DNA from: Schmidtea nova
Taxonomy: Eukaryota
NCBI GenBank assembly: GCA_044892505.1
Contig: CM097882.1
Span: forward strand, 331,638,001-331,702,000
DNA length: 64,000 nt
Direction of reading: 5' to 3'
The first letter of the stretch is position 1; each line of letters opens with the position of its first letter. The position numbers were made by a program, and so were the translations under genes. Positions 4,801 through 61,378 of this stretch are shown here, piece by piece. The notes beneath the pieces were generated by a model. It was given only the letters and a program-made list of their open reading frames with translations, was not told the DNA's origin and made no database searches.

Positions 4801-5350
4801 TAATTGATTTTACTATGCTTTAGATTTTTATCGGAAAAATTGAGAGAAAAATTTATTTTAAAACGCTGCCGATCACCTTAATCGATACCCGATTTGAATT
4901 TAAAATTAGAAAATCAAAAGCAGGAACACTTGCTGAAACACTTCTAGAACTTTAACCCTCTTCAAAATGATTGAATTTGATTCTGGTTCGGTTTGGGATC
5001 CACCATTTGGTCCACATTTGACATAAAAATAATAATAATAAGAAAAACAAATAAGAATAAAGAAATATTAATGTACTTAAATAAATATCAGTAAAAATGA
5101 ATTAAAAGTAATAAAAAATATTAATTTAATATCAAAAATTAGAAGAAAATAAATGGAAAATGTCAAAATGTTAAAGAAAAAATGATATTTAATTATATTT
5201 AAAGCAAAATATAAAAAGTAATAAAGGAAAAAGAATTACTAAAATTCTTAAATCAAAATAAGAAAAGTTAGCGATTTAAAACAAATTAAATCGATTTTAC
5301 TTTTTAGAAAAATTTATTATTTATATTGATATGATGATCAGCTTCAAGCT

Positions 5351-5385
5351 GATTGGTCCAAAATTTGATCTGGTCAGTATAAATA
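5351..5385 (+). promoter_or_regulatory. Inverted CCAAT (GATTGG) plus TATA box, copy A
   Basis: GATTGG 5351, TATAAATA 5378. Same 27-29 bp spacing in four other copies. Confidence 0.7.
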
Positions 5386-5676
5386 CTGATCCAGATTCAG
5401 ATGAATTAGCATATTTTTGAGCATAGCAATTTGTTAGCATAGCATATTTTTTAGCATAACAAATTTTTAGCGCATTATAGCATTATCAAATTTTTGAACG
5501 ATCATTTGATACTGACATTTTACTGTTAAATTCTTAAAGATTTTTTGTGCAGAAATTCAAAGGTATATTTGATTTAATTTTGTTTTCTGTTATGATGATT
5601 TCTGTCACCATTATTTAAATATGAATAAATTTTTTGAAAGTTTATATGATTTACTTTTTGAATCTAGAATAATTTA

Positions 5677-5960
5677 AGCTTCTTCCACTGTGTGATCGGT
5701 GGAAGGAGACGACGATATTTATATGTTTATTTATATTTTATTGAGCTTCTTCCACCGTGTAATCGGTGGAAGGAGGCAACATTATGGTATTCAAGTAGCA
5801 ATTAGATATGAGTATAACTTTTATAAACAATTTTTTGGTCGAGCTTCTTCCACTGTGTAAACGATGGAAGGAGGCGAATTTATGTTATGTAGAGTAGTTA
5901 CTGTAGTTATATATATTATTCAAGGGGCTCCGATCACCGTGAAATCGGTGAAATGGAGGC
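5677..5960 (+). repeat. Array of four ~34-bp GC-rich hairpin repeats with AT-rich spacers
   Basis: agcttcttccacYgtgtRatcggtggaaggagRc at 5677, 5744 and 5842, plus a variant at 5926. Confidence 0.9.
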
Positions 5961-6745
5961 ATACTGTGCCGAGTAGAATGACTGCTCCGTACAGTTAGGC
6001 CGTCCGACCGGTGTAAAAGCGCCGCAGGGAGGGTAGGATTTTTACTAACCATGATCACTAACAATTTTTATTACTGGATAGTATAACCAGCTGGAGTTTT
6101 ATTTTATGATAGATTTGGTTATTATGAATTCGAATTTAAGTTTGATTTGGTTATTATGAATTCGAATTTAAGTTTGATTTTTAACAATAATAGATGTGAT
6201 TATTATTGACCTGATTTGACATTTGGTTAGTAAAATAGTATCCTATTTTTTGATTGTCACATCTGGGGTTTGTGGGCACAAAGCGGCAGATACAATGTAT
6301 AGAAATTCGTACAAAATACACCTTCTAACACAACAACATCAAAGAAAAATCGATAACTTTAATAGCGTAGTGATCTACCACGCAAGCAGAATATTATCAA
6401 TAGGCTAAAGGATCACATATTCAACACATATAATTAATATAATTGATTATCCTGAACCCTGTACATAGGGCAGTAGATCATAGTTGTATCTTTAATAATT
6501 TATTATCCTGATTGCTGTACATAGCACAGGCGTGAATAAATAAAATATATTATCAAATGAATGTATCTGATCGCTGTACATAGCGACAGTGTTGAAAGTA
6601 TAATATGAATATCATTTTCTTCTCCTGAATTGAAAACTAATGGACGTAAAAAATCATGAGATATATTTAAACCAGAGAAACCTAGTTCATATTAATATTA
6701 AATTCTAGAAAAATTTCATTCCACTCAACAACTCCTCAAACAGAA

Positions 6746-7303
6746 TTGGACAAGGCATGGCGTATTATCCGCAGCCTGGAGAAAGAGATGTTGCGAAAAT
6801 CCGAAAAGATAAAAGAAGCCGATGTTATGATTTCAAATTTAAAGAAGAGCTGGTTAAGTCCAGAGCAAATGAAGGCGCAAATTATCAAAAATCAACGCTC
6901 ACAGCGAGCAAACGACGAAATAAAGTTGGAACTGGATGCGACTAAGATGGAGCTGAAGAAATGCCTAAAATCAGTGACAGCTGCTTATCTCGACCAGGAG
7001 TTAAGACAACTCATCAGACCAATTACCTATCAGCATTGGGCTGAAGAGAAATCAGGATGTTCGAAAGGAACGAATACTGATGAACCATCTCAGGTTCAAG
7101 CAATAACAGCATCAAACACACCAAAAAGCGCTACAAATCCAGAAGTCAAAAAGAAGAAGAAGAGTAAGATGGGCGCGCGTCAGCGTCGATGGAAGAAGCA
7201 AGTACTTCAACAATTGGCACAACATTCAAAAGAAACTCCGGAGATCGATTTGACAATGAACTTTGTAGTTTCCGACGAAGACATTATTAAATATTTTGAA
7301 TAG
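6746..7303 (+). CDS. ORF2-family orphan protein (coiled coil, ELRxLIRPIT motif, Arg/Lys-rich segment), open frame; true start uncertain
   Basis: 185-aa ORF aligning by eye with the ORFs at 15868, 18196, 40225 and 44994. Confidence 0.8.
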   Translation: MDKAWRIIRSLEKEMLRKSEKIKEADVMISNLKKSWLSPEQMKAQIIKNQRSQRANDEIKLELDATKMELKKCLKSVTAAYLDQELRQLIRPITYQHWAEEKSGCSKGTNTDEPSQVQAITASNTPKSATNPEVKKKKKSKMGARQRRWKKQVLQQLAQHSKETPEIDLTMNFVVSDEDIIKYFE

Positions 7304-7637
7304 GGATTTTGTGATTTAGTTGTGTAAATTTTCGCTTATTAAATAATTTTTGTTTTGTATTTATTTTATTGTAAAGTATATGAAATAAAGTGATTTATTA
7401 AAGATTTAAAATAATTTAAATGAAAATATAGATTATAACTAACAATAGGATTGACATAAATATAATCTACAATAAGAGTATTAAAGAGATAACATATTAT
7501 AATTGATTAATGATTATTTGTTGATATTGTAAAGAAGGGGGCTGAAAGAAAAGTTAAAAGTTGAAACATTGTAAAGAGAAGGGGGCAGAAAGGAAAATTG
7601 AATTAAAAGATAATGAATGCGGATAGATTAAAGTAAA

Positions 7638-7888
7638 GCGTAAGTCCTTCTATCGGCAGCGAGACGAACCCGTGAACATAAATGGGGAGTAGTTTTAGCA
7701 ATAGAGCTCACCTTCCCATCATTGTTCAAACACCTTGCACATTTCCAACTCGATTATTACAGGGAAATGGTCGAAGGTGCTCGTGTGATATGTAAGCATT
7801 TTATGTTAGGTCTTGGATGGAGGAATCCCTAGAGCGTTTAATAATTGTTTTATCTTTTTGTTTTAACCCATCCAAAAACACCACAACA
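7638..7888 (+). ncRNA. 3' structured RNA module, copy A
   Basis: gcgtaagtccttctatcggcagc block; GTTTTA-GCAA-TAGAGC hairpin; TTGGATGG/CCATCCAA terminal stem. Confidence 0.7.
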
Positions 7889-10044: not shown

Positions 10045-11325
10045 GGTAAAGGTAGCGTATGGGAGGGCCAATTTTTAAAATTAAATAATTAATAAAAATT
10101 TATTAAATAAATTGATATTATATTAAAAATAAGTTATATTATATTAAAAATAATTAAAAAACTAATTACGACAAAACAAGAGTTTACATAATAAAAACCA
10201 CATCAAAGCAAAATTAATGTGATACATATAAAGTAAAGTAAAAATAGACAATCTCAAGACAAATTTAATACCACCATATTATGTTACCATATTTTTTTCT
10301 TGCATTGTTTCCATAAAGATATTAAATACTGCTCGATCATGAACGAACCGCCTTCTCCAAATAAATTCATCAACGTAGCTTGGTAAAAACGAATTAGGAG
10401 AACCGAACATGTACTTGAATTTACGTTTGCATAAGGCCCAAGAGCCTTCAATACTATTGGTATGCGCGCCTGTAACTGGATCGATGAAGTGCAAAGAATG
10501 ATTGACCCATTGATGTTCGTAAGGACCTAGTAGTGCGAGTGGTGTAGGATGAGAAGTGTTTCGATTCGGCCCCCCGTATACGTTGCATATTCATCCGACC
10601 AAATCAATGTCCCTGGCAAAACTACTCCCCTAATAATCGGGAATATAGTTTCCTGTTTTCTATCTCTCACAAATTCCAAATGTACATTTTTAGTAGCTTC
10701 ATCGAAGATACCAAACACCCAACCTGCAGCGGTGTTCCCCCTTGGCTCCCCTCTATGGTGCTTCAAACGCATGAACTTGGATTCATCGATCTGCACTCTA
10801 CGTCCAATACCACCGAATACCAAAGGCTCTCGTAACAATTTCCAGCTACATAGATCTCTGAAGTACTGAAACCACTGTACTATTGCTGTTTTGGATATTC
10901 CAGTGTACAGTTTCACTTGTTTGATTGATGTTTCTGCGCTCCAAAAATATACCAATTCAACTAGTTGACTAAGCGGCAAACGGGAAGTTTCAAAATAACT
11001 CCCATGTGTAACGTACCTTTTCTTCCGGTGTGAATTATTTCGTGTTCTATCACGACATTCGTATAGGTATTTATTCAGTACATTGTTTTCTGCTACCAAT
11101 TTCATGTTCCTTCCGCAAATTTCACATAAAGGTGGACCTTTAATAAGGCCATTATTTTCGCAAAACGTTATGCATTCTTTTGCATCGTTTGTAATTGCAT
11201 ATAATTCTTTTAACAGCATGGTTATTTATAATAAAGTTTATAAAATTTATAATATCAATTTATTTAATAAATTTTTATTAATTATTTAATTTTAAAAATT
11301 GGCCCTCCCATACGCTACCTTTACC
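10045..11325 (-). mobile_element. Merlin (IS1595/ISXO2-like) DNA transposon
   Basis: 78-bp perfect TIRs starting GGTAAAGGTAGCG; 8-bp TSD AATTTCTT at 10037 and 11326. Confidence 0.95.
10279..11219 (-). pseudogene. Merlin/ISXO2-type DDE transposase with one frameshift near 10540-10570
   Basis: VQIDESKF, WVFGIFD, IWSDE, then in a shifted frame HQWVNHSLHFIDPVTGAHTNSIEGSW and YVDEFIWRRR. Confidence 0.9.
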
Positions 11326-11573
11326 AATTTCTTAAAAGTTTTTGAAATGTTGGCGAAATTTGAACAAGTTATTTCAAATTATATTAATAATATTAATTTC
11401 ATTACAAGTTTTTAAAGGTGATTCTATATCTAATGTTGAAGCAGATGACTTTTAAAATGAATTAATGATGTACAAAATCATTAATGATGATATTATTTAT
11501 TCTTTAAATAATTTGTAATTTATTGAAGCAAATAATTTAATTTCATCACTTTCAAACTTTCCTGTAGTTTTAA

Positions 11574-13600: not shown

Positions 13601-15188
13601 TGTTGGGCCAGCCAAGTAGAGGTCACGCTTGCAATTAAATAAAATAATAAATTAATTAATCAAAGTAGACAAATTACCCCACAGTAACAAGAAATCTAAA
13701 TAAAACAAAAATAAACATAAGAATAATCAATAAAAGAAAACACAATTACCAAAATGGTAACAAATGGGATTCATGTCTGACTGAACCTAGAAAATAACCT
13801 AGAAATCAATAGAATTAATAAAAAATATATTTGTAAATACCGACAATCCCAAGGAATGGATTAAATCTTAAAAACAAATAATGAAATAAAATTGACAAGT
13901 AAAGCAATCTGTTACCCATATTGGGATGCACGGTAAACAAAAATCGGTTAAAAAATAAGAATTGATAGAAAAAAATAAGAAATTAAAAAAAATAACGGAA
14001 ATAAAAAGAAATCGATCGAGAAATAAAGTAAACAGCGGTTATGGCGAATTAAAAAAAATAAAATAAAATGAAACGGAATAAAAATATAAAAATACGAAAA
14101 AATACAAGAAAAAAAGATACTTCTGATTATAATAAATAAACAATAAAATAGAAAAAAAAGAAAATAAATAGAAAATAAATAAAAATTATCAAATTAAATA
14201 ATCCAGCCAATTAAAGACTTGGTTCGGATTTGATTGGTTAACTGAACGTCAAAATTATTATATAAAGGGCGCTTGATTCAGCGTAGGAGCAATTATTTGC
14301 TAAGCATTTTTTTGAATTTTTTAGCATTAAATAATTATCATCGACTACTATCAGTGCAAATCATCGTACTTGAACTATAACCGTTGAACACCAAATTTTC
14401 CAAGAGACATCGAATCAATATCACCGAAATTCGTTTACCGAAGCGAACTATCTTAGAAGCACTTGTGGAAAATTTCATTGTAACTCTCTCAGTTTATAAT
14501 ATATGTATTATAGTTAAAAGTCAACGTGTTTTGTTATTCAATACTGTGTTTTCATATGTTCAGATTTTTCGTTTAAAAGAGATAATAATTTTCAGTTTTT
14601 GGAAGCTATGGACGGCCAATGGGGTCGCCAGCTCCGTGGTGATCTGTTTATTAGGTCTGCCCCAAGATAGGCTGGATGAAGAGAACATCAATTCCAATTG
14701 AAGTGTAGAGTAAGTAAAGTGAATTAAGGATGCCTAAATGCCAATGTAGACCGGTCACGTCCGAAATGTACGAAATTAGCTAACCGTGAACTAAAAGTAG
14801 AATCATGTAAATCGTGAATTACCCTAAATTATTTTGTCAGAAAACGAGATAGATAAAACGGAAAATTCCGTAGTTACATTGATTCCAAGCCGATCCAGCA
14901 ATTTGAAATACCAATTGAAATCATCAGCTAGAATACATTCTTTACCCGTGATTAATTCCGCAAAGTATGTGGATCGACATCATCTAATAAAATTACATAA
15001 TAACCGATAATAGCGAAACCACTACATCAGCCCCCATCGGAAGATGCGGAGCGCATTTTGAAATACTATAAAAATCATTATTAAAAGAAGAGTGAATATA
15101 CCCAAAAGGAAGTACAGTGAGTCAAGGGAGGAGTCGGGTGTAAAGGGGCCGGTGCACGAGGAGGAGAAATTATGACAATTTTATTCTG

Positions 15189-15509
15189 ATGGCAATGCCT
15201 CTGAAGCGGAATATCCCTTCCAAGCTTGCTCGAGAAATTTTCTTAGACTACTCAGAGACGCTCATCATCTATCGCGATAGCCCCGACCATATAATCTGGT
15301 TCGGTGGGCCGGAGTGGCCAATTGACGTGGCAGATACGTCAAAGTATTTTGTCGAGACTCCAATTGATGTCGCGAGTCTCGAGATCATACAGTTCGTGGG
15401 CACCATATCGGCCGGGGAATTTCGGAAAATTGACCAAGAAATATACGACGGAGATATATATGCACCTGTTCCCGACTCACTTGAAAGCCTAATTGGAGCT
15501 GATGCATGA
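15189..15509 (+). CDS. ORF1-family orphan protein (MPLKxIP...RDxPxxIIWxGxxEWPI), open frame
   Basis: 106 aa; motif shared with the ORFs at 25043, 33028, 39434 and 45819. Confidence 0.75.
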   Translation: MAMPLKRNIPSKLAREIFLDYSETLIIYRDSPDHIIWFGGPEWPIDVADTSKYFVETPIDVASLEIIQFVGTISAGEFRKIDQEIYDGDIYAPVPDSLESLIGADA

Positions 15510-15867
15510 ACCCAAAAGCTACTAACATCCTCATTATCCTAATATCTGTTGTAAATTACCTAAATAAATCTTTTGTTATTAAAGATTGGTGTTCTAGCTG
15601 TAATGAATAGATTATGATCAAGCTGATTTTAATAGAGTATGGAAATAGTAATCGAGCTGTAGGCGATAGTAATAAAGCAATGATAGCGACCGTAAAGGTG
15701 ATAGACGGAGTGTAAATCCACTTAGAGGAGAACCAGTATTAAGCGATACCCAGGGTAGATCTATACTCATAGGTTTTCAGGTAGCGAAGTTTATTACCCA
15801 GTAATATTTGTAGGGGCAGTACAACAAATTCATATCATGATATTTAAATAATAATCATTTAAGGAGT

Positions 15868-16290
15868 ATGTCAAACATGAACGTAGATAGGAACGATCCA
15901 GGCATAGGGATCCTAAAGAGGAGAGTTGTAGAGCTGGAAGGTACATATTTTTAACCAGCCGATATGAAGATACAACTATTCAATTTAGCCCGGATGCGAG
16001 AAGCGAATGATGACCTCAAGTTAGGGCTCGAAGTTGTCCGGATCGAGTTGAGGAAGTGTAGAAAATATATTACGGGAAGATTCGTAAGGGAAGAGCTAGA
16101 GAGCCTAATCAGACCATTAACTCTATCTGAGTGGTACCCAGAGGCCGCCGCCATTAAACACTACGAGATAGAAGTACATGGACCACCGCCGAAGAGGAAG
16201 CGGAAGAGGATTAGTTCTAAAAAACGGCAGAGATGGAAAAGACAGAGGATGGAGGAAGAAAACAAACGACTTGTGTCCGAAGACGTGTAA
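15868..16290 (+). pseudogene. ORF2-family protein with one in-frame TAA
   Basis: MSNMNVDRNDPGIGILKRRVVELEGTYF*PADMKIQ...EELESLIRPLT...KRKRKRISSKKRQRWKR. Confidence 0.75.
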
Positions 16291-16743: not shown

Positions 16744-16814
<71 letters not shown>

Positions 16815-17920
16815 ATTGACTTCCTAAACATTTATGACGAACCGGCTGTTACATTGTTGAACGTCGTTAATTCCATTTGTGAAATAGAGTAATATAACGA
16901 GGAGGCCCGGGATGGCTAATTACTGACCAATTTTATTCGCCGAAGTTCGGGCGACTCCTAATTTTACTAAAAGGTCAAAATTTTAAATCCCAATTAAATT
17001 AAAATTATTAAGCCCAAATTACAAATACATTTAAAATTCTTTATTATTAACACCAAATTACAAATACATTTTTAAATCCCCATCAGTCACATCTAAATTT
17101 AAGGGGTGGGAATGATCGCTGGGGCCCACTACAACAATCCTAAATCCCCCCCATTAAATTTACATTTAATTTTAAATTTTTAAAAATTTTATAATAAAGT
17201 GCGGCGCTATGACCACTACAAGAAATCAGAAGGCTTACCCGCTTTTGCGTGCCACCCCCGCTCTGCTACCCGATCAAAAACCATTAAAGGGGAACTTGCA
17301 AGATTGGGATTTCAACTTTTCACCTCACCCCTCGTTCCCAAGATTGTCAAGCAAGAGTGAGCGTTGATCTGAGAATGCAATATATATATATATATATATA
17401 TGTATAAGACTGACGTCCTAAACATTTATGACGAACCGGCTGTTACATTGTTGAACGTCGTTAATTCCATTTGTGAAATAGAGTAGTGTATCGAGGAGGC
17501 CCGGGATGGCTGATTACTGACCAATTTTATTCACCGAAGTTCAGGCGACTCCTAATTTTAATAAAAGATCAAAATTTTAAATCCCAATTAAATTAAAATT
17601 ATTTAGCCCAAATTACAAATACATTTAAAATTCTTTATTATTAACACCAAATTACAAATACATTTTTAAATCCCCATCAGTCACATCTAAATTTAAGGGG
17701 TGGGAATGATCGCTGGGGCCCACTACAACAATCCTAAATCCCCCCATTAAATTTACGTTTAATTTTAAATTTTTAAAAACTTTATAATAAAGTGCGGCGC
17801 TATGACCACTACAAAAAATCAGATGGCTTACCCGCTTTTGCGTGCCCCCCCGCTCTGCTACCCGATCAAAAATCATTAAAGGGGAACTTGCAAGATTGGT
17901 ATTTCAACTTTTCACCTCAC
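16697..17920. repeat. Tandem duplication of a ~600-630 bp unit containing a TA tract
   Basis: Units start ccctcgt(a/t)cccaagattgtcaagc at 16697 and 17329 and are highly similar. Confidence 0.9.
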
Positions 17921-18195
17921 TTCGGCCCCTCGGGAAGGAATACGAGATCAGTCAACCGGAGTTCTCACTGGAAAATATACGCCGTGCACCCATAAATCAA
18001 TGGCTCCACGAAGCTTATGTCTTCGGCAGCGCATAATCATCGAACGAACTATTTGTGTGCCATAGCATCTAATAAATTCGAATTTTGAATTTAGTTTTAT
18101 TGATTAGGCTAATTTTTTTCATTTCATAGAATAGAATGTTCATTAATACCAAATAAAAATTTCCATAAATAACCATTAATTAAAGTACCTTCAGT

Positions 18196-18789
18196 ATGAA
18201 CCAGGAAACAAGCCAACAAAAATAACTCGATAAAATGTGGAGGATTAAAAGGGCTCAAGAGAGGGAGCTAGAACAATTAAAGGCCCAACTGGCAAAGGTA
18301 CAAGCCCAAGTACAGTATGTAAGGAAGAGCTGGTTTGCGCTAGCCCGAATAAAAGAGCAGATAACCCGAACCAAACGGGCGCAGCTGACAGCGGATGATT
18401 ATAAAGTAGAGTGGGAGGCCACCAAAATAGAAATGAGAAAGTGCCTCCGCTCAGTGACAACTTCTTTTATCGTAAAAGAGTTGCGGTCTCAAATTAGACC
18501 TATAACATATCATAATTGGGTGACGTAAAGAAAACCGACTTGTTTAGTTGGAACCGATATAGAAGGCCTAAGTTCCACGATAGCGTCAAGTCCAGCAGAA
18601 CCTCCAAAAACAATAAGCTCCACAGGCGGAGTTAGGAAAAGGAATAGGATTGGTTCAAAGCGTAGGCGTCAAAAGAAGTTGTTTGCACAGCAACTACATG
18701 CGCAAATCGAACACCTGACGAATCTAGGCAACAACGAATTATTGGCAGAGGTTTTTTCCATGGAAGGAATTTTTGAGGAGTTTTTGTAA
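18196..18789 (+). pseudogene. ORF2-family protein with two in-frame TAA codons (copy C, 5'-truncated element ending at 19208)
   Basis: MNQETSQQK*LDKMWRI...ELRSQIRPITYHNWVT*RK...RKRNRIGSKRRRQKKLFAQQL. Confidence 0.8.
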
Positions 18790-18975
18790 ATAATAAAGTA
18801 TTCGTGAAGGTGTATCGGAGTTTTGATGTTGTTGTTCACATTTTTTCCTTTAACTTTAATGTAGCTAAAATTAAACTAAATCTGGAAAGAACTAGCAAGG
18901 GGTAGTTAATCTAGTAGAATTAAACGATAAAGAATCATTACACGGGAAATTTGTTTAATTAAAATGTAGACGATA

Positions 18976-19208
18976 GCGTAAGACCTTCTAACGGCAGCGT
19001 GAACCCGCGAAAATAAATGGGGAGTAGTTCTAGCAGTAAAACTCACCTGCCCATCATTTTTTCAACCACCCTGCGCATCACCAACTTAACTGCATAGGGA
19101 AATAGTTAAGGGCGCTCGTGTGGAAGTTGCAAATGTTTATGTATGGTCATCGGGTATCCCTAGCATAATTACGTGTTGATTGTTTTCGGCCCACCCATAA
19201 ACCCAGCA
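18976..19208 (+). ncRNA. 3' structured RNA module, copy C, ending AAACCCAGCA
   Basis: gcgtaagaccttctaacggcagc; ATGGG/CCCAT; CTTAACTG/TAGTTAAG. Confidence 0.7.
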
Positions 19209-25042: not shown

Positions 25043-25375
25043 TTAACTGAAGGGAGTCGGTGAATTTGTTAGGCATTGTTGATTCGAATACCAAATTGCC
25101 CATTCCGGAGAATTCGGACGACGGAATATGTCCCGTATATATTTTCTGATTGCATCCTGGCCTGTTACTTGGAATTTTACAAAATACTTTGGACAATTTG
25201 TCGGGTATTTGAAATCCACGTTGATTGGCCATTCGGCAATGCCATGCCAAATGATCTTGCCCGATCTATCTCTTTGGAGGCTAAACTTCGACTCCAAGCC
25301 CTCTCGTTGGAAAGCATCCTAGTGTTCAGTAAATATTTCCTGTGCCAGCTCCGTTAGGATTACCTTCAGTGACAT
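25043..25375 (-). pseudogene. ORF1-family protein with one TAG (copy H)
   Basis: MSLKVILTELAQEIFTEH*DAFQREGLESKFSLQRDRSGKIIWHGIAEWPINVDF...KYFVKF; start coordinate approximate. Confidence 0.75.
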
Positions 25376-25402
25376 TACAATGATAAGGTAGATTTTATAC
25401 AT

Positions 25403-33027: not shown

Positions 33028-33202
33028 CTGAGTAGCTAAAATCCATATCTATGGACCATTCAGCGCTCTAATGCCAGATAATCTCATCTGGACTGTCTCT
33101 ATGGAGACTGAAATCTGGTGAAATCCCGTACAGAGCGAAATCTTGCTGGTGCTCATTAAAAATCTTCTGAGCCAAATCGGCGGGAATCGCTTTTAACGGC
33201 AT
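33028..33202 (-). pseudogene. ORF1-family protein truncated by the adjacent hAT (copy L)
   Basis: MPLKAIPADLAQKIFNEHQQDFALYGISPDFSLHRDSPDEIIWH*SAEWSIDMDFSYS. Not in the ORF track. Confidence 0.8.
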
Positions 33203-33221
33203 TGCAATGACGAGATAATTA

Positions 33222-37014: not shown

Positions 37015-39433
37015 TAAACAAAAGTATCTGGATATATTTAAAAAACCATGTTTTTTTTGCGTTTAGAAATGAGGCGAAGGAAAGTAATGGACAAACACGG
37101 TTTTATTTATGGTATTTAAGACGAAATAATATGCCGTGGTTAATCATGGCTCAAATTGTAAGCCTCATTTCTTATGAAGTATTTAGTTGTGTGTCAAATT
37201 TTTTGTCTTTGTGATTGTTTTTGTGTGTATTTTGATTGGCAGTTTATTTGTGTGTGCATAAATTCATTTTGAGTTTTTTATTATTGATTGCATTTTGTTC
37301 ATGGAAGCTAGTTTTAGGATTTGAATCAAACTTTCTTTGGCCGTGAGTAGTTTCCCTAATGTTTAAAATAAAATTTAAAGGTGTGACGTTGAATTTGTCT
37401 TCTTTAAATCATGATAGTGCTCTTGGTAATTTGAAATCTGTAATGTGTGAGGAGGTATCTGTTGTTCCAGAAACCAAAAATATTTGGAATAAAACCTTCA
37501 CCAGGATTTATTTCTGATGAATTGACATTTAACAACATATTGTTTCCGTCTAACTCCAAAATCATGCTTATTGGTTCAACTGACGAGCAAGAAAAATTTG
37601 TGACAAGAGATTTAATGATTTAGATGAGTTGAACGAAGATCAAGAATAAGATGAATTAAAAGTAGATATTTGTGAAAGATCTGAATATGCTGCTATAATT
37701 GAAAGACGGATAAAAATATTAATAATAATCAATAAATAGTTACTTTGGATTTCCCAAAAAACTAATCCAAAAAATATAAAAAGAATATGAATAGAATCAG
37801 AGCCAATATTCTTTTTTATCCAAAAAAATAAAAGGCACACTATTAAAATTTATTTCATAACTGTTAATAATAATCAATAAATTGTTACCTTTCAATAAAT
37901 AAACTCATCTAACAAATAAGGATCATTAAATTAAAATAAATGTTGGGCTAACCAAATCACAGAGAAACCCTAAATCAGTAAAAATCAAAATAAAACCACA
38001 ATAAAGTAATAATAAAATTACCAACAGTTCAACAGCGGTTAACAATTCAAAGCATGGAGACCTAAAGAATAATGGTAACAATAGATAAATAATAAATCAT
38101 CAAAAACTTACCCAAGCAAGACATAAACTGACAATGAGTAGGCGGATAGCTGAGCAGAACACGAGAATCTAAAAGAAAATAAATTAAATAAAATTAACGG
38201 TTGAGTGAACAAAAACTCACCGAATTAAACAAGTAAAGATGAGCAGTAAAAATGAAAGGCTTACAATAAGCACAGGCATACTCAAATTTGATTGGCTGGC
38301 TGTCAACACAAATTAGTATATAAGCGGCAGCCCAATTCAGAAAGTTAATGTCATTTTCAGTTACGAACTGTCAGCTTACTTGCGACAAGTGTAAATCAGC
38401 AGAACTTTGTAGTCGCGAATTGAAATCGAAATAAAAGGTACGATTACATTCTTATGTTATGTTATTATTTTAAACCCTCATGATATCTAAAATCAATAAG
38501 GTATCCCGAAGGTCGTCGGATCTGACGGGATTTTGGGCCTCTCAGCGCAACACATTTTCATGTGAGGGTTGATGCGGCGAGTGGATAGGTTTAGTAACTT
38601 TGGGAGTGGTGCACATAGACATCATAGTAGATAATATCATGATGGGATGTAGGCAAGCGTCGCGGTTTGGATGACCTAGCTGAAAAATGTATGTGTATAT
38701 TGCGTAACACAAACAGCATTGGGTGTACGTAGAAAGTCGAGAGATTGTCGACATTATGGAGAGATACACATCGATACCCTCCCTAGAAGACAGGATCGAG
38801 AAAAAGATATAGTAGATCCGCACATTGGAGTAGGTACGACCTAGGATACCCCGAAGGCGAGGCCACTTAACATTTGTGACATTGACCAGCAATGAAATCC
38901 GAGGAGGCACCGTAGAAAAAAGGATTAGTGCCAAAAATTGAAACATTTGCGATTGATCAAGGGAGCAATAATAATTGTCCATAAATAAGTGACCCCGAGG
39001 CAGAACCCTGACTTGCCGATCAGATGACATAATTGACTGAACAAAATGACTGATGTAGGTTGTTGGTTAACTGATGCGATCAGCTATGTCGACACGCATG
39101 ATGCTTCTATGTAAACTATAGGCTACGTGATGATGTCTGAAATGATTGTGGGCGGCTCGTACTACGGCCAGTAGAATGAATATGATGGACATACTGATCA
39201 GTTAATTGGAATTTTTGTGTATGGAATCAATAAAATGACCAGTAGAATGAATATGATGGATATACTGATCAGTTAATTGGAATTTTTGTGTATGGAATCA
39301 ATAAATCAGGTAATCCGTAAATTTGAATTGAGATGACTGAAAGGCATGATTGAATTAGAGGATGATGCAGGAAACGGGAATGTTTGAGGAACACTTCATC
39401 GTTATGAGTAATTAATGCGTTTTTTCTCAGAAA

Positions 39434-39889
39434 ATGAATGCAAAACTCCGTCGAGCATACTACTGCCAATCAACGAAACTGAAGACGAACCAGTCGAACC
39501 CCCTACCCGAAGTCCCTTAATCAATCCAAGCCATAGCTGACCGTCACATGCGTAGATGGAGACGCAGGCATGTGGACTTAAATGCAATACAAGGTTCGAC
39601 AGTATATCACTACCGAGTGCGATGAGAGGGCGAACCCTCCTGGCCGAAATCTGACCATGATCTAACGTCCAAGATGCCATTATGGTTCTTCCAATTCGAG
39701 GATTAGCGAAGCAAGCCTCGCTGAATATTGACTTTTGTGAAGATACCAAATCGGATTCTCCATCAAATGGGATATATATTATTGGAACGCCATATTTGCG
39801 TGCATTCCGGAATATTACGGCCATACGCAAATTCCCCAGGGAATCAAAAGATGAATCAGGAAGAATGGATTCCCGACACTTGTATGTGA
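39434..39889 (+). pseudogene. ORF1-family protein with several stops (copy D)
   Basis: PLPEVP*SIQAIADRHMRRWRRR...YRVR*EGEPSWP...LWFFQF aligns with copy E PLKRAPFEIIQQVHLKMWAWRRE...VWYRGCANWP...EWFVL. Confidence 0.7.
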
Positions 39890-40224
39890 GAGATCTTCGT
39901 ATATGAGGACAAATTATGTTGGATCCCATGCCCAAGTTACTATAACCCCGATGGCACCGGAAAATCGGACCAAACGTGCGTCCAAGAGTGGGTCAAGTTC
40001 GAGGACTGAAATGATGTACATCGCCTCATGTGATTTCGTTGAAATTAATAGAGAAAATAGTTGTTGATTTTCACGAGTTCTGATTGTAGAATAATGAAAG
40101 AATGTGTGAAGGCTTGAACGAATAAGTATGTCTGTTAGAAAAATTTCACGCGGAATCAATGAAGGGGGGAATGATGAGTCGTAGATTGTGGATAAAGCGT
40201 GAATTAACAGGTCTATGATTTTAG

Positions 40225-40778
40225 ATGAGCAATACAGTCAAAAACCCTCATTCCGACGAAAATCAACTCTTACGTAAACGCATAAAAGTGCTGGAAAGTC
40301 ATGTAAAGAAGCCGAAATGAGTCAACTAAAAACGACCTGGTTTCACCCCGAACGGGTCAAAGAAATCCAGCAGCACAGATACCGGGCAGAAAGAGCTTTA
40401 GAGGATCAGGCCAGTGAAACTGCCGCAGTTAAGTTAGAGCTCAATAATTACCTGCGAGCCTCCACGAGAGAATTTATTGAACAATAGTTAAAGCCGCTAA
40501 TACGTACCAGCACCTTCATCCGTTGGGCAGAGTCGATCCATGTAGCTTATGGTATGCAAATGGAAACGAGCTTTACCTCTGTGTTAGAAAGCTTAAAAGA
40601 GATTCCCAAACCGGAAGGATCGCTGCGTACGAAGCGAAGGAATCGTTTAGGTGCGAGAAGGCGTCGCGAAAGGAGAGCCTATGCCGAACGAACAGGAATC
40701 GAGGTGGATTTCTTAAGTGGGATAACCGAAAGGCAGTTGTTGGAAGTCATTAATACGGATGTTTTGTTGGGTAAATAA
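40225..40778 (+). pseudogene. ORF2-family protein with one frameshift and one TAG (copy D)
   Basis: LLRKRIKVLE / LKTTWFHPERVK...EFIEQ*LKPLIRTSTFIRWAE...KRRNRLGARRRRERRAYA. Confidence 0.8.
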
Positions 40779-40955
40779 ATGTTTAGCGTACGAAGCGTTG
40801 TTTTTGACTGAATGTGGAATGCATGGAAAATTGAGTGAATGAGTAGATGATTAAATAAACACAATTCATTTGAAGGCCGAGGGATATTACGAAAATAAAT
40901 CAACTCTAGACGTAGCGGAATCAACAAAATAAATGGGGACCGAAAAAAAACCCAC

Positions 40956-41183
40956 ACAGACCTTCTATCGGTATTGGTGGACTTGTGAATAAATGAGGGA
41001 ATAGTAGCCGCAAGGTTGCTCATCTGCCTCATCATTTCACAACGTTGATACAGTACCATCATGATGAGTAGTTAGGGACACATCATGGGTATCAGTGGGG
41101 GAAGCGTGTTTATGTTGGCGAGATTACCCTGACAATTAACATCCAATAAAATCTCAGTTGAAAAACGTACCAACAAACCAGCA
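40956..41183 (+). ncRNA. 3' structured RNA module, copy D
   Basis: ATGAGG/CCTCAT; GTAGCC-GCAA-GGTTGC; CATGATG/CATCATG; TGTTGG/CCAACA. Confidence 0.7.
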
Positions 41184-43003: not shown

Positions 43004-43980
43004 TGGCCAAGCGCAAGGTTTGTTCAAAATAATTAACGTCTAGAATCCTATTACATTTTTAATGAAATGCGATTTGGTATTCAAAGACGCAAAAAAAAAG
43101 TACTGTATTTATATTTATTTATATCAAATTGTATAACTCTTATAATTAGATAAAAATTCGGACATAATAAAAATAAATCAAAAATATGCATTCATCTCGT
43201 GCATTGCGTTTACTTAATGAACGTCGTCTTTACATCTCTGAAAGTATTCGCAAAGTCAATTAGAAAGTCAAACATATGAAAAATTCGTAAATGACCAATC
43301 GAAGGTAGTAGAAATGCTGTATCGAATTATGCCTACAGATTACACTCGATAATCTTCCGTTGAATTTATACTCTAAATCGCAAACAGTATTAATAGAAAC
43401 TTCTAAAAAAATTTATCTAGACTTTTGAGTATTTAAGATCGCCAAAAGAACCGTATTGAAATTTTATATATACTTTATTTTTAAAAATTCATGGCCAAGC
43501 GCAAGGTTTTTTCAAAATAATTAACGTCTAGAATCCTATTACATTTTTAATGAAATGCGATTTGGTATTCAAAGACGCAAAAAAAAGTACTGTATTTATA
43601 TTTATTTATATCAAATTGTATAACTCTTATAATTAGATAAAAATTCGGACATAATAAAAATAAATCAAAAATATGCATTCATCTCGTGCATTGCGTTTAC
43701 TTAATGAACGTCGTCTTTACATCTCTGAAAGTATTCGCAAAGTCAATTAGAAAGTCAAACATATGAAAAATTCGTAAATGACCACTCGAAGGGTAGTAGA
43801 AATGCTGTATCGAATTATGCCTACAGATTACACTCGATAATCTTCCGTTGAATTTATACTCTAAATCGCAAACAGTATTAATAGAAACTTCTAAAAAAAT
43901 TTATCTAGACTTTTGAGTATTTAAGATCACCAAAAGAACCGTATTGAAATTTTATATATACTTTATTTTTAAAAATTCAT
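43004..43980. repeat. Near-identical 488-bp tandem duplication
   Basis: Units start tggccaagcgcaaggttt at 43004 and 43492. Confidence 0.92.
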
Positions 43981-44433
43981 GTATGATCGGAATTAATTTT
44001 TGTAAAAAACTATAAAATACTTTTATGTCGCAATACATAAAAATTTTAACTTGAATTATTAGATTATAATATGTGTGAATTTAAATTTTTTATTATTATA
44101 AATTTTATAGAATTTCAAATTTGGTCATAAAAATAAAATTTACCTTTATAGATAATATATTATGAAAAAATTAGGATATAAAAGTTATAAATCAAAAATT
44201 TTCTTAGAATAAAAAAATTATAAATCGAAAATAGTATAATATAAAATTTTAAATCAAGAATTTTATTATGATATTGAATATAAAAATTAGGAATTTGGAA
44301 TTTTATTATTATATAAATTTTATGAAATTGTAAATTTAAAATTTTGTAAGAAAAATTACAAAGATAATTGTTGTCATTTTAATAATTAAAATTTAATTCT
44401 AAAAATTATTTTTTATAAATAAATAAATAAATA

Positions 44434-44673
44434 TGATGGGGTTGTGGATGGGTTTGTAAAAAACATATGTTTGAATTGTTGCGTTCTAGGATCTCTCACC
44501 CACAGCCTTGCATAAACTGATCGTCAACACGCGTATGCCCTTGACTATTCCCTATTAGCCAAGTTGGTACTGCATACGGTGGTGGAAAAATGATGGGCAG
44601 ATGAGCTCTTTTACCAGAACTACTCCCCATTTATCTTCCCTCGGGTTCGTGCTGCCGATAGAAGGTCTTACGC
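44434..44673 (-). ncRNA. 3' structured RNA module, copy E
   Basis: Nearly identical to copy F over ~150 nt; TGTGGGTG/CATCCACA terminal stem. Confidence 0.7.
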
Positions 44674-44993
44674 ATAACAATTTTATTTCTATTCGTCCCA
44701 ATATGTTAAATTTAATCTTAAATCTTTGTGCACCTCCATTGTCTGAAAACGCTTTCTAATAAAACTTTCGTACTTTACTTTAGGTTGTTAATTTTATCTT
44801 GCGCATAATTCAATCGACTTCGCTGTGATCGTTATTTATGTGCAATTTATGAGGAAAAATGTTACCTAAATTATTTATTTAGTTTTGTTTAATTTAGAAT
44901 GAATAATTTTTTCGAGGAGAGACAATACCAAACTAAATCAGTTACTCATTAACTCGAAAAATATTTTATTTTAGACACAGCAACTTCAACATT

Positions 44994-45578
44994 TTATTTC
45001 ATAAAATCCAAGTCGATTTCGTCCATCAGTTCTAATTTTGTTAACGCGCTTAATCGATCTATCTGCATATTCATCCGCTTGGCAAATTCTCGGCGACGAC
45101 GTCTTTGTCGCGATCCTAATCGGGTTTTTCGGGTTTGATGGATCATCCTTGCAGGAAGTTCTGGTTTTGGTTGGATATCGTGGGGTGTGGAGGAAATGTC
45201 CACGACCGGGCTCGGTTCCATGTTATGATCGTTCTCGGTTCCTGTTGCAATTTCCCGATATTGACCCTCTGTCCATCGCCGGGCTGTAATTGGGCGAATC
45301 AGTGCCCGCAATTCGCTATCAATATAGCTTTTCGTCACGGAATTTAGGCAATTTCGTAGTTCCCTTTGTACGGCATCCAGCTCCGTCTTGGTTTCGGCCA
45401 AAGCTTCCTGCATTTTAGCCATTTTCGACAGTTGAGTTTTCATTTGATCTGGAGAAAACCAACGAGTCTGAAGTTCTTCATTTGCGACCCTGAGTCGCTT
45501 GATCTGTCGTTTTTGGTCTCTCATTTTTCGTTCTTGGACTTGATTGGTAAATTCCCTGGACTTTTCGATGGAATTCAT
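44994..45578 (-). CDS. ORF2-family orphan protein, intact 194 aa
   Basis: ATG to stop open; WFSPDQMK, ELRNCLNSVT, ELRALIRPIT, RLGSRQRRRRREFA. Confidence 0.85.
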   Translation of the reverse strand: MNSIEKSREFTNQVQERKMRDQKRQIKRLRVANEELQTRWFSPDQMKTQLSKMAKMQEALAETKTELDAVQRELRNCLNSVTKSYIDSELRALIRPITARRWTEGQYREIATGTENDHNMEPSPVVDISSTPHDIQPKPELPARMIHQTRKTRLGSRQRRRRREFAKRMNMQIDRLSALTKLELMDEIDLDFMK

Positions 45579-45818
45579 TTAGTCTGAATATTACAACATT
45601 TATTGCAATTGTTAATTTATTTGTGATTTATGCTTTGTTTAAGCTAACATAATAGTTATAACGCTATTCTTTCAGGTACATGTGTTAACCAAATTAATGT
45701 GAATCTACAAAATGTTATCGTCACCCTTCAAGGTTTTTGGATTTTGAAATAATTTCGATTAACTACTACCAACTAACTAAAAGAAACTCTCATTTTCAAA
45801 TACATTTATTAAATCAAA

Positions 45819-46238
45819 TCACTCCATGGACAATTTTCCCCGATAGGAAAAGATAGCACGGATTTGCAGGTTGGTTTTGAATCCATTTGAGGGGTTGGTG
45901 GAATCCTTCTTGCTCTCTCTGAGCGGTCTGATCGCGACATTATAAATGATGCTCAGTTCCTTAAACGTTGAGGCGGAAATGTAGCCCCAATAAATGACGA
46001 AGTTTGGGAATCCATTCTCGTCCAGCATCAGGACGAACCACTCCAAGTGCCAGGGTTCGAAATCATCGCCCGGAATTATGGGCCAATTGGCGCATCCTCG
46101 ATACCACACATGGTGCCGTGGGTGATCCCACACGGTGAAGGGAAATGCTGTGTCCAACTCCCTTCTCCAGGCCCACATTTTCAGATGGACCTGCTGAATG
46201 ATTTCGAATGGAGCGCGTTTTAGGGGGCTGATCCGCAC
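45819..46238 (-). CDS. ORF1-family orphan protein; the frame stays open about 100 nt upstream to a splice acceptor near 46340
   Basis: PLKRAP...VWDHPRHHVWYRGCANWPI...EWFV...YWGYISA. Confidence 0.7.
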   Translation of the reverse strand: MRISPLKRAPFEIIQQVHLKMWAWRRELDTAFPFTVWDHPRHHVWYRGCANWPIIPGDDFEPWHLEWFVLMLDENGFPNFVIYWGYISASTFKELSIIYNVAIRPLRESKKDSTNPSNGFKTNLQIRAIFSYRGKLSME

Positions 46239-47607
46239 TCGGTTCCGTTTGAGCTGCCCATTTTTCCATCCCCATTGATTTTCCTTTCGTTGGTTCCCAT
46301 TAGTTTTTTCCTCAATAATTTGAACTTCGACATTTTTTCTAGATCATAATAAAAATCATTTAAATATCTAAGAGACATATTTGTGGAGTTTGATATTCTC
46401 CCTCTTCGCTTATTTTATTTTATTACACGCATTCCCTTTATGCATTGGGTCGAGTTTATGCTGAGAAAACTGTCGACTGAGGTAGTAAAACATATATTTT
46501 ACTGATGCCTGTTTTCTAATTTTTACTGTTCTAATCGCGATTATTCGTTGGGATATCACTGTTGAAAAATTTATTGTTTGTAGTTACTCTGCAGTGATAT
46601 TAAAAAAATGGTTTTGATATAAAATCCTTGATACCTTCTAATAGCGCATCTCATGCCTATTCTGGGGTCAGCTGTCTCGATACTTAGGAAGATTTAGTAA
46701 TATAGTGCTCGTATTACAACCGTTTCGTGTAATTTCCGCCCCTTAATTCATTGTCCCATGTGCAAAACCTCAAAAACTTTAATATATGTTAGATGCCACT
46801 AATTTTCCTACCGAGTGTGGAGCTTCTAAGCACCACGACGCGGACTTACACCCTGGGAACCTATAGCTCCCATTCGGCGCACAAATCGTCTATAATGTAT
46901 ATATGACAAAAAATAATATTATCAATACATATAATTAATATAACAAAATTTATAGCAAAGTCATGAACAACAGCATCATAAAATAAAATAAAATAAAAGT
47001 ACCTAATTTCGTGTACGTCACAACTTTGATTTCAAAATTCTTGATAAGGTAGCACTATGTCTGAACGATTGTCTGGTCTCAAATGATCGTCTGAATAACT
47101 GTGTTACAAAATCAGTCAAAAATCAAGTTAGATTAAATCAAGTCAGAGTCAAGTCTAACTTAAGTCAAATTCACGCAGTTCTTGTTCTTAAATGAATTGC
47201 ACTCGGTATTTATATCGATTTGTTTGGATCAGATTAACCAATCAGGTTTTGCCGCCTCCATTATTTATTTTATTTTTTAATTATTTTCTGTTTTTTCAGA
47301 TTAAATTCACTCTTGGTGGTCCAAATTTTCAGTCTATTTTCCAATTAAAATGACTATTATTTTTGTTTAAATTATTAATTTTTTACCTTTTATTTGTTTT
47401 AGGTACCTCATATGACGGCTAATTTTACAATTTCTCTTGGCCACTCTATTTCCTAATTTATAAAAATTTATCTATAATTTATCTATAATTTATTTATAAT
47501 TTATTTATAATTTCAAATCGAACATTTAATTTCTTAGTCTACGTTTTTTTCTTTTTGTTTTAATTGTTACTAATTTATTTTCCTTTTTACTCTTTTTAGC
47601 TGGCCCA

Positions 47608-47639
<32 letters not shown>

Positions 47640-58491: not shown

Positions 58492-59854
58492 TGTTGGGCT
58501 GGTGAAATCAAAAATAAATTTAATTAAAAATTATTAAAAATTAAATACATACAAAAAGAAACAAAGAGAAACGCACGACAAGACGTTAAGCAGTAAAATA
58601 ACGCAAGGGAAAATAAAAACAGTTAAGTACAATAGTAGTCATACGAACCGCATCCTTTAAGTCGGTCAAGATAGGGTTGAAGCGATAAAAAAGAGGAATC
58701 TCAAAAGAGAGCACACAATTTGAGTGCAGGTCGGATTTACACACGAAGGACCGCACGAGAATTGAATGTGGAAGATCAGTGCTTGTAAAGTGATTATGAA
58801 AAGCATGATCAAAGAATAAAATCGGTATCAGAATAAAGAAAATAATTTATTAAAAATTATAGAATAAATCCCCATTGAAATATCGCAAAATTAACAGAGA
58901 TAGGAATGTAAATAGATTTAAAATTAAATTGTTTTAATCAATAAATGCACAATAAAACAATAGATACACACCTAATTTAATATAATAAATATTTTCGAAA
59001 ATAAATAAATCAAATTATAAAGTTAAATTTATGAAAGATAAATAAATGCTCACTTATTAAAACTAATAAGTGAGTTAAAATCATTAATAAATTATGTAAA
59101 TAACAAAATATGTAAGTGTCAGTGAAATTAGTATAAATAGATATTGAAAAATCACAATCAAAACTTACTTGGCATTAATTTACTGAAAGCAAAAATTTGG
59201 TTTTGATTTCGCCAGTCGTGTGGATCGATTTTAAGCAGGTATTTTTGTTATTTTGGTGATATGTGTTGGGTCAATTGTTGTTCAATGGTCACAATAAAGT
59301 TTTGAGGCTAAATCTTTGCTTAAGGGATTCCCGATTAAAATCTGAATAGGGGCGTCCCTCTGTGGTGCAATCCACGAGGGTGAATCCGTGGCTGTGGAGC
59401 TCAGTAGTTCCACGTCATGGTGAGTGACTAAATTATTAAAACTAGAATAGTAAATAATTTGTAAGGGCGGCGAATGCACACGGGATATTCTAAGTACGAA
59501 TGTACACCAAATGTTTTATTAGTTACGAATACACATAGGTAGTTAGTTGTGGTCAACCACCAAGTCACGTAGGATATGGTTATTAAATTGAGAGCTAGAG
59601 ATCGAGCGAAATTTAAGTCGACGGATATAAAGAATCAAGCGTAAGACCTTCTATCGGCAGCACGAACCCGAGGGGAAAATAAATGGGGAGTAGTTTTGGT
59701 GACGGAGCTCACCTGCCCATCATTTTTCCACACCGTATGCAGTACCAACTTGGCTAATAGGGAATAGTCAAGGGCATACGCGTGTATTAGTCATTTTATG
59801 TAAGGTTATGGGTGCGGAATCCCTAGTATTTAAAACCCACCCATAAACCCAGCA
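58492..59854 (+). mobile_element. TG..CA element copy F (1363 bp, no recognisable ORF1/ORF2)
   Basis: TAAA|TGTTGGGCTG...AAACCCAGCA|TAAA; TATAAATA at 59132; complete 3' module. Confidence 0.85.
59639..59854 (+). ncRNA. 3' structured RNA module, copy F
   Basis: GTTTTG-GTGA-CGGAGC; CTTGGCTA/TAGTCAAG; TATGGGTG/CACCCATA. Confidence 0.72.
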
Positions 59855-60161: not shown

Positions 60162-61378
60162 GGGTTTCACGACCAATTTAATAATATTTGCAACCAATTT
60201 CATAATTTCTCGTTCAATTTCATAATTTTTGCAACCAATTACATAATTTTTGCAATCAAATTCATAATTTCCACATCAATTTAATAACTTTTGCAATCAA
60301 ATTCATAATATTTGCAATCAATTTCATAAAAAAAATCCATATTTTTAATTTAAAAAATATTTTATTAAACTCCCATGTCAAACTCAATTTTCGATTCAAA
60401 CTTAGAAGAGGACATAGAAGAAGCAAGTTTTGAGGAACGAAATCATACAAACGTTTCTTTGATGTCAACAAACCCTACAAACACAACTTCCGCCTCGCCT
60501 GTCGCGGAAAAAATCGACATACCTAGGAAGATAAATGTAAGTATTTCGGCTAATGATAGAGAGCGGATTATTCCTCGATGAAGTTGGATTTGGGGTGGTA
60601 ACACGCCCATCTCGTGGAAGAAGCTCCAAAGGATCGTCGGCCTATCTCTCTGTGCCGGCCGCAAGAAGCAGGAATATTTCTGTCGTTTCTGCAATGAACA
60701 AATACGGTATGATCTACCATAAAATTCAGGAAAGAGCCGTTATGGTGAAGATTTTAAAACATGCTTAAAAGAACTCCACGATTGCTGTATTCGCATAGGA
60801 ATAGTTTCCCCCATCTTTATCATGGATAATGCCCGCATACATCATTACAGGGGGTTGATTGATGACGCAGAAATTTCATCGTATAGGATACAATACCTTC
60901 CACCTTATTCTCCGTTATTGAACCCCATCGAAAACGTGTTTTCCGTTTGGAAAAATTGTGTCATTCGCAGCAATGCGCGAACTGAAGCAGAATTGAGAAG
61001 CAATATTACCGACAATTTTTATCAAATAACACCTGAACATTGTGCTTCTTTTTATCGAAAAATGCTTAAATATTTACAAAAAGCGGAGTTAAGATTGGAG
61101 ATTCTTGAATTTTTTGTTTGAATTTTTTTTAAGAATTTTTTTTTTGAAGTTTAACTTTAAAGGTTTAATTTACAGTATACATTTATAAATTTAGAGTTTA
61201 TTTTTTAATTTTTTTATGAAATTGATTGCAAATATTATGAATTTGATTGCAAAAGTTATTAAATTGATCGGGAAATTATGAATTTGATTGCAAAAATTAT
61301 GTAAGTGGTTGCAAAAATTATGAAATTGAACGAGAAATTATGAAATTGGTTGCAAATATTATTAAATTGGTCGTTTCC
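60162..61378 (+). mobile_element. IS630/Tc1-like transposon, internally deleted
   Basis: ~165-bp near-perfect TIRs built of ~20-bp subrepeats; TA at both outer ends; FLDEVGF, IMDNARIH, LPPYSPLLNPIENVFSVWK. Confidence 0.88.

Follow-up and report, generated by a model that had tools for sequence, protein, structure and literature searches.

Solo LTRs are usually regarded as the non-coding debris of retroelements. Genes encoded within LTRs do have a precedent in the sag gene of MMTV, as the available portion of PMC11998498 describes it. Among the accessory proteins of retroviruses, those of the Rev-like type form multimers, attach to a structured cis element and contain export signals (PMC3856414, in the part available). 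In planarians, Burro and GYPSM1 are giant gypsy-like elements (PMC6431247, citing Jurka, 2007 and Grohme et al., 2018; available in part). The portion of the Burro text seen in that source, figures aside, mentions no open reading frame inside the LTR, and a literature search gave nothing that describes LTR-encoded reading frames of Burro, which the original Burro description and Repbase could already annotate. The subject here is ORF2, a reading frame in a 64,000-nucleotide stretch of the Schmidtea nova genome (the window). It is a real gene under purifying selection, specifying an apparently undescribed LTR accessory protein of a Burro-like element.

The ORF2 frame of copy E is open over 194 codons (Table 1). 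With its translation as the tblastn query against the window, copy A is found at 38% identity (E 1e-23), copy C at 30% (1e-22), copy B at 41% over 68 aa (1e-12) and copy D at 34% (1e-9). Judged by these alignments, the divergent copies are genuine and far above chance. A preliminary description had claimed six copies of low mutual identity, with A and E open and B, C, D and H disrupted. The low identity (30-41%) was borne out; the number was not, as a protein profile and a DNA profile each find the same five (A, B, C, D and E). Copy H has no ORF2 by either profile and cannot be counted as disrupted; it has the LTR ends and a conserved 3' block. The remaining assignments stand: E is open, A is open but without the start codon found in its close relatives, and B, C and D carry in-frame stops. 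The motifs that the copies had been said to share are present, but they are looser than stated. Exact matches to W[FL]SPxxMK, ELxxCLxSVT and ELRxLIRPIT occur in two of the five copies (A and E), the spacing from ELRxLIRPIT to W is three residues and not two, and the basic motif as first written is found in D and E only, its relaxed form in four of five (not B). An alignment of 56 natural open copies shows no variation at P43, L74 and T98 and almost none at R159, W102 and C77. A first genome-wide look (1.25 Gb) gave 9,288 ORF2 candidates, 150 of them scored, figures that are not copy numbers; the family is very large in this genome.

Table 1. Features of the window discussed in the text (position 1 is the first letter of the window)
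Feature	Position	Strand	Remarks
Copy E ORF2, 194 aa	44994..45578	-	predicted coiled-coil helices, linker, Arg-rich segment, C-terminal helix; dN/dS
Solo LTR, copy E, 3,177 bp	44434..47610	-	sharp ends common to relatives; 4-mers TATA/TATT; homologous LTRs flank full-length elements
CCAAT and TATA boxes, putative promoter	47206..47243	-	~370-405 nt into the LTR; layout shared by the E, N, K, A and M1 clades
Candidate splice donor, then T-rich DNA	46995..47010	-	putative, by sequence inspection
LTR ORF1, ~170-180 aa in relatives	45819..46352	-	upstream start out of frame in copy E
Splice-acceptor-like YAG, putative	45584..45600	-	5 nt before ORF2 start
Conserved block, two covarying hairpins	44480..44678	-	starts with donor-like GTAAG
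Copy A, A-clade LTR without ORF1	4991..7888	+	ORF2 frame open, ~6689-7303
Copy B	15129..16290	+	ORF1 15129-15509; ORF2 15928-16290 with in-frame stop
Copy C	17477..19208	+	ORF1 remnants; ORF2 ~18200-18790, two stops; 3' block, LTR end
Copy D, solo LTR	37941..41183	+	TAAA/TAAA duplication; ORF2 ~40317-40775 with stop
Copy H, short solo LTR	58492..59854	+	TAAA/TAAA duplication; 3' block; no ORF1 or ORF2; Gag-only family

Other repeats in the window include an ISXO2-like (PF12762) transposase reading frame at 10527-11219 (-), which lies between 101-nt inverted repeats (10043-11327), and a ~1.2-kb unit at 60165-61374, likely of MITE type, whose 166-nt inverted arms consist of tandem repeats of 21 nt. 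There are also local tandem duplications of 488 nt (43004-43981) and ~594 nt (16786-17851). Reading frames resembling DNA polymerase, ATPase and integrase are found near several ORF2 copies; by eye we take these neighbours to resemble Polinton elements.

In what kind of unit does ORF2 reside? The frame lies in a 3.2-kb unit whose sharp ends are common to 20 relatives, each taken with 10 kb of context; it starts with TGTTGGG and ends with CCCAACA or a close variant. In copy E the 5' dinucleotide is changed from the TG...CA type, and the flanks have one mismatch. Target duplications were inspected in 38 copies, and both ends could be called in 29: 24 have exact 4-bp duplications, four (including E) have one mismatch, and the last is also exact once its ends are set correctly. 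A search based on copy A revealed same-strand ORF2 pairs ~17-40 kb apart, many of them near 22 kb. The LTR pairs that were fetched (A, K, M1 and M2 clades) are 99.0-99.9% identical and have 4-bp duplications outside, and a common primer-binding-site (PBS) motif, presumably of tRNA-Pro type, is situated 6-9 nt inside them. The pattern of LTR end plus PBS has 38 matches in the genome and none for the reversed control. In all four ORF2-bearing clades with fetched pairs, ORF2 is inside the LTRs. One close ORF2 pair turned out to be a local duplication and another a single copy split by an insertion; a search in reverse orientation turned up unrelated flanks (10 of 31 matches examined). The same PBS motif also accompanies another LTR family, whose 3' end is different and which shows no match to ORF2 in the adjoining 1.5 kb.

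The interior between paired LTRs shows Pfam matches to zf-CCHC, the PF24664 fusion glycoprotein (5e-71), protease, ankyrin, MATH, zf-TRAF and RING. These are laid out as a RING reading frame, a polyprotein (CCHC-PF24664-protease-ankyrin), a TRAF/MATH reading frame and further frames. RVT_1, RNase H and integrase follow the protease in seven of the 11 ORF2-bearing elements tested, and the order protease-RT-RNase H-integrase, taken from the Pfam matches, is that of Ty3/gypsy (Metaviridae-type). RT-bearing copies have an interior of ~21-23 kb with one frame of ~5,100 codons; whole elements measure 25-30 kb, with LTRs of 2.8-3.6 kb. A genome-wide Pfam RT search did not reach the element. Two candidates, a DNA transposon of the Ginger type and a Penelope-like element, are ruled out by the paired LTRs with PBS and gag-pol.

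On sequence evidence, copy E is the solo LTR of a giant env-bearing Ty3/gypsy element, because it has LTR ends and a target duplication, and because homologous LTRs occur in pairs around a PBS and gag-pol. Such solo LTRs would arise by LTR-LTR recombination. It had escaped the preliminary description that the 3.2-kb unit is the LTR of an element with its own separate Gag. Within E's own subclade no full-length element was found; the nearest has an ORF2 59-60% identical and homologous LTR blocks. The 30 kb upstream of a close E relative that carries an internal 3' end motif holds no element proteins.

The interiors themselves vary. The RT-RNase H-integrase stretch (~3 kb) is missing in four of 11 ORF2-bearing elements, which keep Gag, Env and protease. 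A single deletion is common to three of the RT-less copies, all of the A clade; in a distant clade (~51% polyprotein identity) nearly the same stretch is missing. The many A-clade pairs at the matching 22-kb spacing suggest an amplified non-autonomous env-bearing form. A-clade LTRs are mosaic and diverge more than the interior: among four A-clade elements, dS of ORF2 is 0.23-0.51 in five of six pairs, compared with 0.04-0.14 for RING, gag and TRAF. This suggests LTR exchange between lineages in the A clade.

Is ORF2 a gene or a chance frame? For the dN/dS comparison, 130 distinct copies with at least 85% coverage were reduced to 121 by removal of near-duplicates; stop codons were masked, saturated pairs were dropped and the ratio was taken as mean dN over mean dS within each clade. 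Within eight clades the ratio is 0.08-0.19. Because many copies had been picked by protein score, the analysis was repeated on copies picked by DNA pattern only, where it is 0.18 (18 copies) and 0.16 (eight copies). In the DNA-pattern sets the ratio is 1.06-1.58 for shifted sense frames. The constraint reappears in one antisense frame (0.20-0.29), which however contains six to nine stops on average. Variants present in at least two copies have ratios of 0.04-0.20 and private variants 0.12-0.74 (0.65 in the E clade), the contrast to be expected if selection acts during replication and copies decay once inserted. Along ORF2, pN/pS is tightest at residues 36-105 (0.07-0.16), ranges over 0.03-0.29 in the basic segment and is weakest in the linker (0.30-0.58). 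In 11 A-clade LTRs, ORF2 has a single gap, which keeps the frame, compared with 87 in the flanking LTR DNA (69 and 18, of which 14 and 3 are frame-keeping). These comparisons support the view, already put forward in the preliminary description, that ORF2 was held by purifying selection while the elements were mobile, and the ratio among genomic copies is far under 1.

How might ORF2 be expressed? CCAAT and TATA boxes are located ~370-420 nt into the LTR in the E, N, K and A clades, and the same motif is found in M1; M2 has a TATA-like motif only. The CCAAT-TATA pattern has 79 matches in the fetched loci, and a donor-like site is present within 420 nt of the promoter in 67 of them, a count that has no background control. 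A fifth CCAAT-TATA motif is seen at position 34241 (+) of the window. A YAG within 8 nt before the ORF2 ATG characterizes six of eight clades (E 22/25, N 24/24, K 9/9, A 16/16, C 8/8 and M 7/7), with a background of 0.23 per 11-nt window; the minority clades are S (1/8) and B (0/2). As the clades are related, this amounts to about five independent observations. ORF2 would be translated from a spliced mRNA begun at the CCAAT-TATA promoter, and the message would start there whether ORF2 sits in U3 or in R/U5. A test of U3 versus R/U5 by linkage of ORF2 to the internal flanks in 11 elements gave a mosaic picture, with one 3' flank of only 40 nt, and a second TATA before the 3' block has no fixed position (73/124, scattered). 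In four runs of unknown kind, present as contigs only, all bins are covered and no joint of the donor to the ORF2 acceptor is found among the best 15 of 57 matches.

A further reading frame, ORF1, precedes ORF2 in the LTRs of clades E, N, K, M1, M2 and B and is missing from A-clade LTRs. It forms a second orphan family with 31 aligned members and conserved W-P and G-x-I positions. No Pfam or PDB match to it was found, and its structure model is poor (pLDDT 50). Remnants of ORF1 from a B-like clade are present in the window at 25068-25414 (-) and 33029-33220 (-), with no detectable ORF2.

The AlphaFold model of ORF2, built on the 56 natural copies, is all-helical (mean pLDDT 76, pTM 0.36). Helices are predicted at residues 2-39 and 43-90, with the W/F-S-P motif as the hinge, then short helices at 96-111, a disordered linker (113-148) and helices at 156-178 and 181-193. 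The Arg-rich segment spans ~149-164; its internal pattern is fixed and includes a small residue and an Arg that hardly varies. The C-terminal helix is acidic and amphipathic, with acidic and hydrophobic character in most clades; in clades S and B the protein stops shortly past the basic segment. Residues 1-112, modelled as a pair, form a parallel coiled coil whose interface includes L74 and C77, with a score of 0.53 versus 0.00 for the best of three controls, run agreement of at least 91% and pLDDT 79. In calibration on solved structures, the dimer mark was passed by 21 of 30 microbial homodimers and none of 23 monomers, and by 17 of 29 dimers and none of 30 monomers from eukaryotes. Only one of seven eukaryotic dimers without an older solved relative passed, so the result for ORF2 may reflect its likeness to solved coiled coils. 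The hydrophobic periodicity shows no clean heptad (best periods 2.5 and 4.4). By this model a coiled-coil homodimer is probable, and for the oligomerization foreseen in the preliminary description the support comes from the model only.

Searches for relatives of ORF2 outside the family were negative. Word-indexed protein searches with E as the query (lengths 106-340) and with the 56-member profile (lengths 59-410) gave no outside homolog, nor did full HMMER over 1.84 billion representatives. An Atlas search gave none either, its best scores of 0.88 and 0.86 being leads only. Among PDB sequences only designed coils were matched, at E 0.27 or worse; Foldseek gave no match at E 0.001 in the viral and PDB sets, and in the VIA fold search nothing stood out (best Z 6.6, generic coils), with the part beyond residue 116 barely covered. 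For Pfam REV there were matches in two of 56 members, at E 0.015, a level that coiled-coil families without relation to ORF2 reach just as well. No Pfam match to capsid, zinc-knuckle or RRM domains was found in the 56 members, and the alignment has no knuckle cysteine pattern. The family thus keeps its description as an orphan, with a predicted coiled coil and no significant match to a known host or transposable element protein or fold in the sequence, Pfam, PDB and fold searches. The missing homologs may reflect libraries without the repeat proteins of this lineage.

Near the LTR 3' end, a 200-nt block has double changes in 19 of 34 hairpin pairs among 18 sequences. None of 500 shuffles reaches 19, and the count in slid controls is 4-8; one and the same alignment supplied both the structure and the covariation count. 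Single-sequence z-scores are modest (-2.3 and -1.6), and G-U pairs favour the sense strand. The covariation supports a two-hairpin RNA structure. No Rfam family reaches its gathering score anywhere in the window. Of interest is the Gag-only family, with ~13-kb elements and a 1.4-kb LTR, in which the PBS motif, a TATA motif and the hairpins are kept and ORF1, ORF2, pol and env are all missing. It is young (94-97% identity over 40 scored matches). Such a family fits a cis element served by a trans factor, and fits any cis signal equally well. It is no proof that ORF2 binds the hairpins, because packaging, reverse transcription or polyadenylation in cis would preserve them anyway.

What does the protein do? 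That ORF2 is an LTR-encoded accessory protein is close to certain. A more detailed proposal, which we put at somewhat below an even chance, is that the product of this accessory gene, a predicted coiled-coil dimer, acts in trans to regulate the RNA of the element itself. The dimer would bind the conserved LTR hairpins through its arginine-rich segment, and its task would be a Rev/Rex-like control of the export of unspliced RNA or of splicing, with Tat-like activation as a sub-option. A gag, ORF1p or Rev-like role had been envisaged earlier; the first two are unlikely because a Gag with CCHC knuckles is encoded separately in the element, and the Rev-like option remains the better one. By analogy, a constrained, basic and probable dimer, a likely spliced message and an adjoining structured RNA would make up a Rev-like layout. 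Several observations weigh against this. Patterns in the C-terminal 32 aa that we take to represent nuclear export signals occur in 11 of 11 E-clade sequences (0.79 in shuffles), seven of 19 from N (0.68) and none of eight from M (0.62), and are overall no commoner than in shuffles. Besides this inconsistency, the S and B clades are without the C-terminal helix, and the Pfam REV matches are at noise level. As for the hairpins, conservation of the block is ~75% and ORF2 identity between clades 30-40%, which looks loose for a specific RNA-protein pair, and the basic patch may be merely a nuclear localization signal. A bolder extension, rather unlikely as we judge it, is that a Ty3/gypsy provirus independently evolved the regulation of complex retroviruses, with an LTR-encoded Rev/Tat-like dimer and its structured RNA target, the two lying within the LTR downstream of its promoter and splice sites, and with solo LTRs as self-contained, trans-acting cassettes. 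Thousands of such cassettes would then serve full-length, RT-less and Gag-only relatives in trans.

Other readings of the same gene have to be weighed. Host-conflict genes often diverge fast, and the 31-42% identity of ORF2 between clades stands beside 92-94% for RT-integrase and 44-75% for TRAF. ORF2 might on these grounds be a host-directed nuclear protein, for instance one that counters silencing by piRNA or chromatin, or an adaptor in signalling. Its basic patch would then be only a localization signal, and the hairpins would work in replication without it. The element has other domains that could meddle with the host (RING, TRAF/MATH), Burro elements are PIWI targets (PMC8532177, in the part available), and the LTR-encoded sag of MMTV acts on the host (PMC11998498, likewise). 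The strong purifying selection within clades, with no region above 0.58, speaks against such a role, as does the pattern of the basic segment, which exceeds the needs of a plain localization signal; we hold this reading to be unlikely. Alternatively, the predicted parallel dimer could bind DNA and activate the LTR promoter, in the manner of foamy virus Tas or of a zipper protein, with the acidic, hydrophobic C-terminal helix of most clades as its activation domain. A palindrome-like GATCAG...CTGATC, conserved around the TATA box in several clades, would suit such a transactivator. However, the basic segment is ~55 residues C-terminal of the coil, past a disordered linker, an arrangement unlike that of a zipper DNA-binding domain, and the fold searches offer only generic coils; the probability is low.

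A coiled coil with a basic patch also recalls, in outline, the architecture of LINE ORF1p, and ORF2 could be a gag- or ORF1p-like structural chaperone that packages RNA. An element with its own CCHC-bearing Gag, a protein in which RRM, capsid and knuckle domains were not found and a Gag-only family that amplified without ORF2 in cis all make this improbable. Least credible is the notion that the 3.2-kb unit is a small non-autonomous element moving alone, or that ORF2 is a neutral leftover. Most E-like copies examined are indeed solo units, the full-length element of E's exact subclade is the one not found and the private E-clade variants are near neutrality. Yet in every ORF2-bearing clade with fetched pairs the homologous units stand as LTRs at both ends of full-length elements, the terminal inverted repeats are only ~7 bp long and the shared variants are constrained; this last reading is already largely refuted and its chance is very slight. 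The RNA regulator acting in trans remains our tentative choice for ORF2.

In this element a gene under purifying selection shares its LTR with a promoter, probable splice sites and a structured RNA, and candidate ORF2 copies number in the thousands genome-wide, many of them still open. If ORF2 is Rev- or Tat-like, protein-controlled handling of viral RNA would reach Ty3/gypsy, beyond the vertebrate retroviruses. Even if it is not, an unannotated gene pair is added to the giant Burro-like elements. ORF2 and the hairpins would offer a small and tractable protein-RNA pair for studying how the expression of a 25-kb retroelement is controlled.

How does the element compare with those described? By the published description, as far as the seen part of PMC6431247 gives it, the element is Burro-like and can be set beside Burro1-4/GYPSM1. 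Shared with Burro are the giant size (25-30 kb here), an interior of more than 20 kb, one huge polyprotein and a very high copy number. In both, a mononegavirus-type fusion glycoprotein (PF24664 here, 5e-71) is in frame between Gag-CCHC and protease, RT-RNase H-integrase is followed by ankyrin, and TRAF/MATH and RING accessory domains are present. Unlike the Burro arrangement in that text, MATH is here a separate reading frame downstream of the polyprotein; the LTR length of 2.8-3.6 kb is a further difference. The BIR domain, a Burro feature, has no Pfam match at E 0.01 in nine stretches of one element, and the BCL2-like and dUTPase-like motifs of Burro have none here by Pfam; the Burro dUTPase-like motif was found by HHpred (PMC6431247, same portion). 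It is filed as Burro-like and not as Burro1-4 because BIR was not found and the likeness is by description only.

With Rev, Rex, Rem and Rec, as presented in the available part of PMC3856414, ORF2 has in common a small, basic accessory protein with an Arg-rich segment and self-association (predicted for ORF2), a spliced message (likely for ORF2) and a structured cis RNA in the same element. ORF2 differs in its 90-residue coiled coil and its location wholly inside the LTR; there is no significant sequence or fold match between them, and an export signal in ORF2 is unsupported above background. Their hosts are Retroviridae, and that of ORF2 is a Ty3/gypsy element. MMTV sag, like ORF2, is a whole conserved reading frame within an LTR. 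It specifies a transmembrane superantigen (PMC11998498, in part), whereas ORF2 is soluble and basic and accompanied by a second LTR reading frame, and ORF2 is downstream of the sole conserved TATA box of its LTR, unlike sag. The plant Ogre elements are likewise giant Ty3/gypsy elements with long LTRs and extra reading frames of unknown function (PMC6431247, in the portion seen). Their extra frames are internal, and env is not described for them in that portion of the source; here ORF2 is in the LTR, and env is present.
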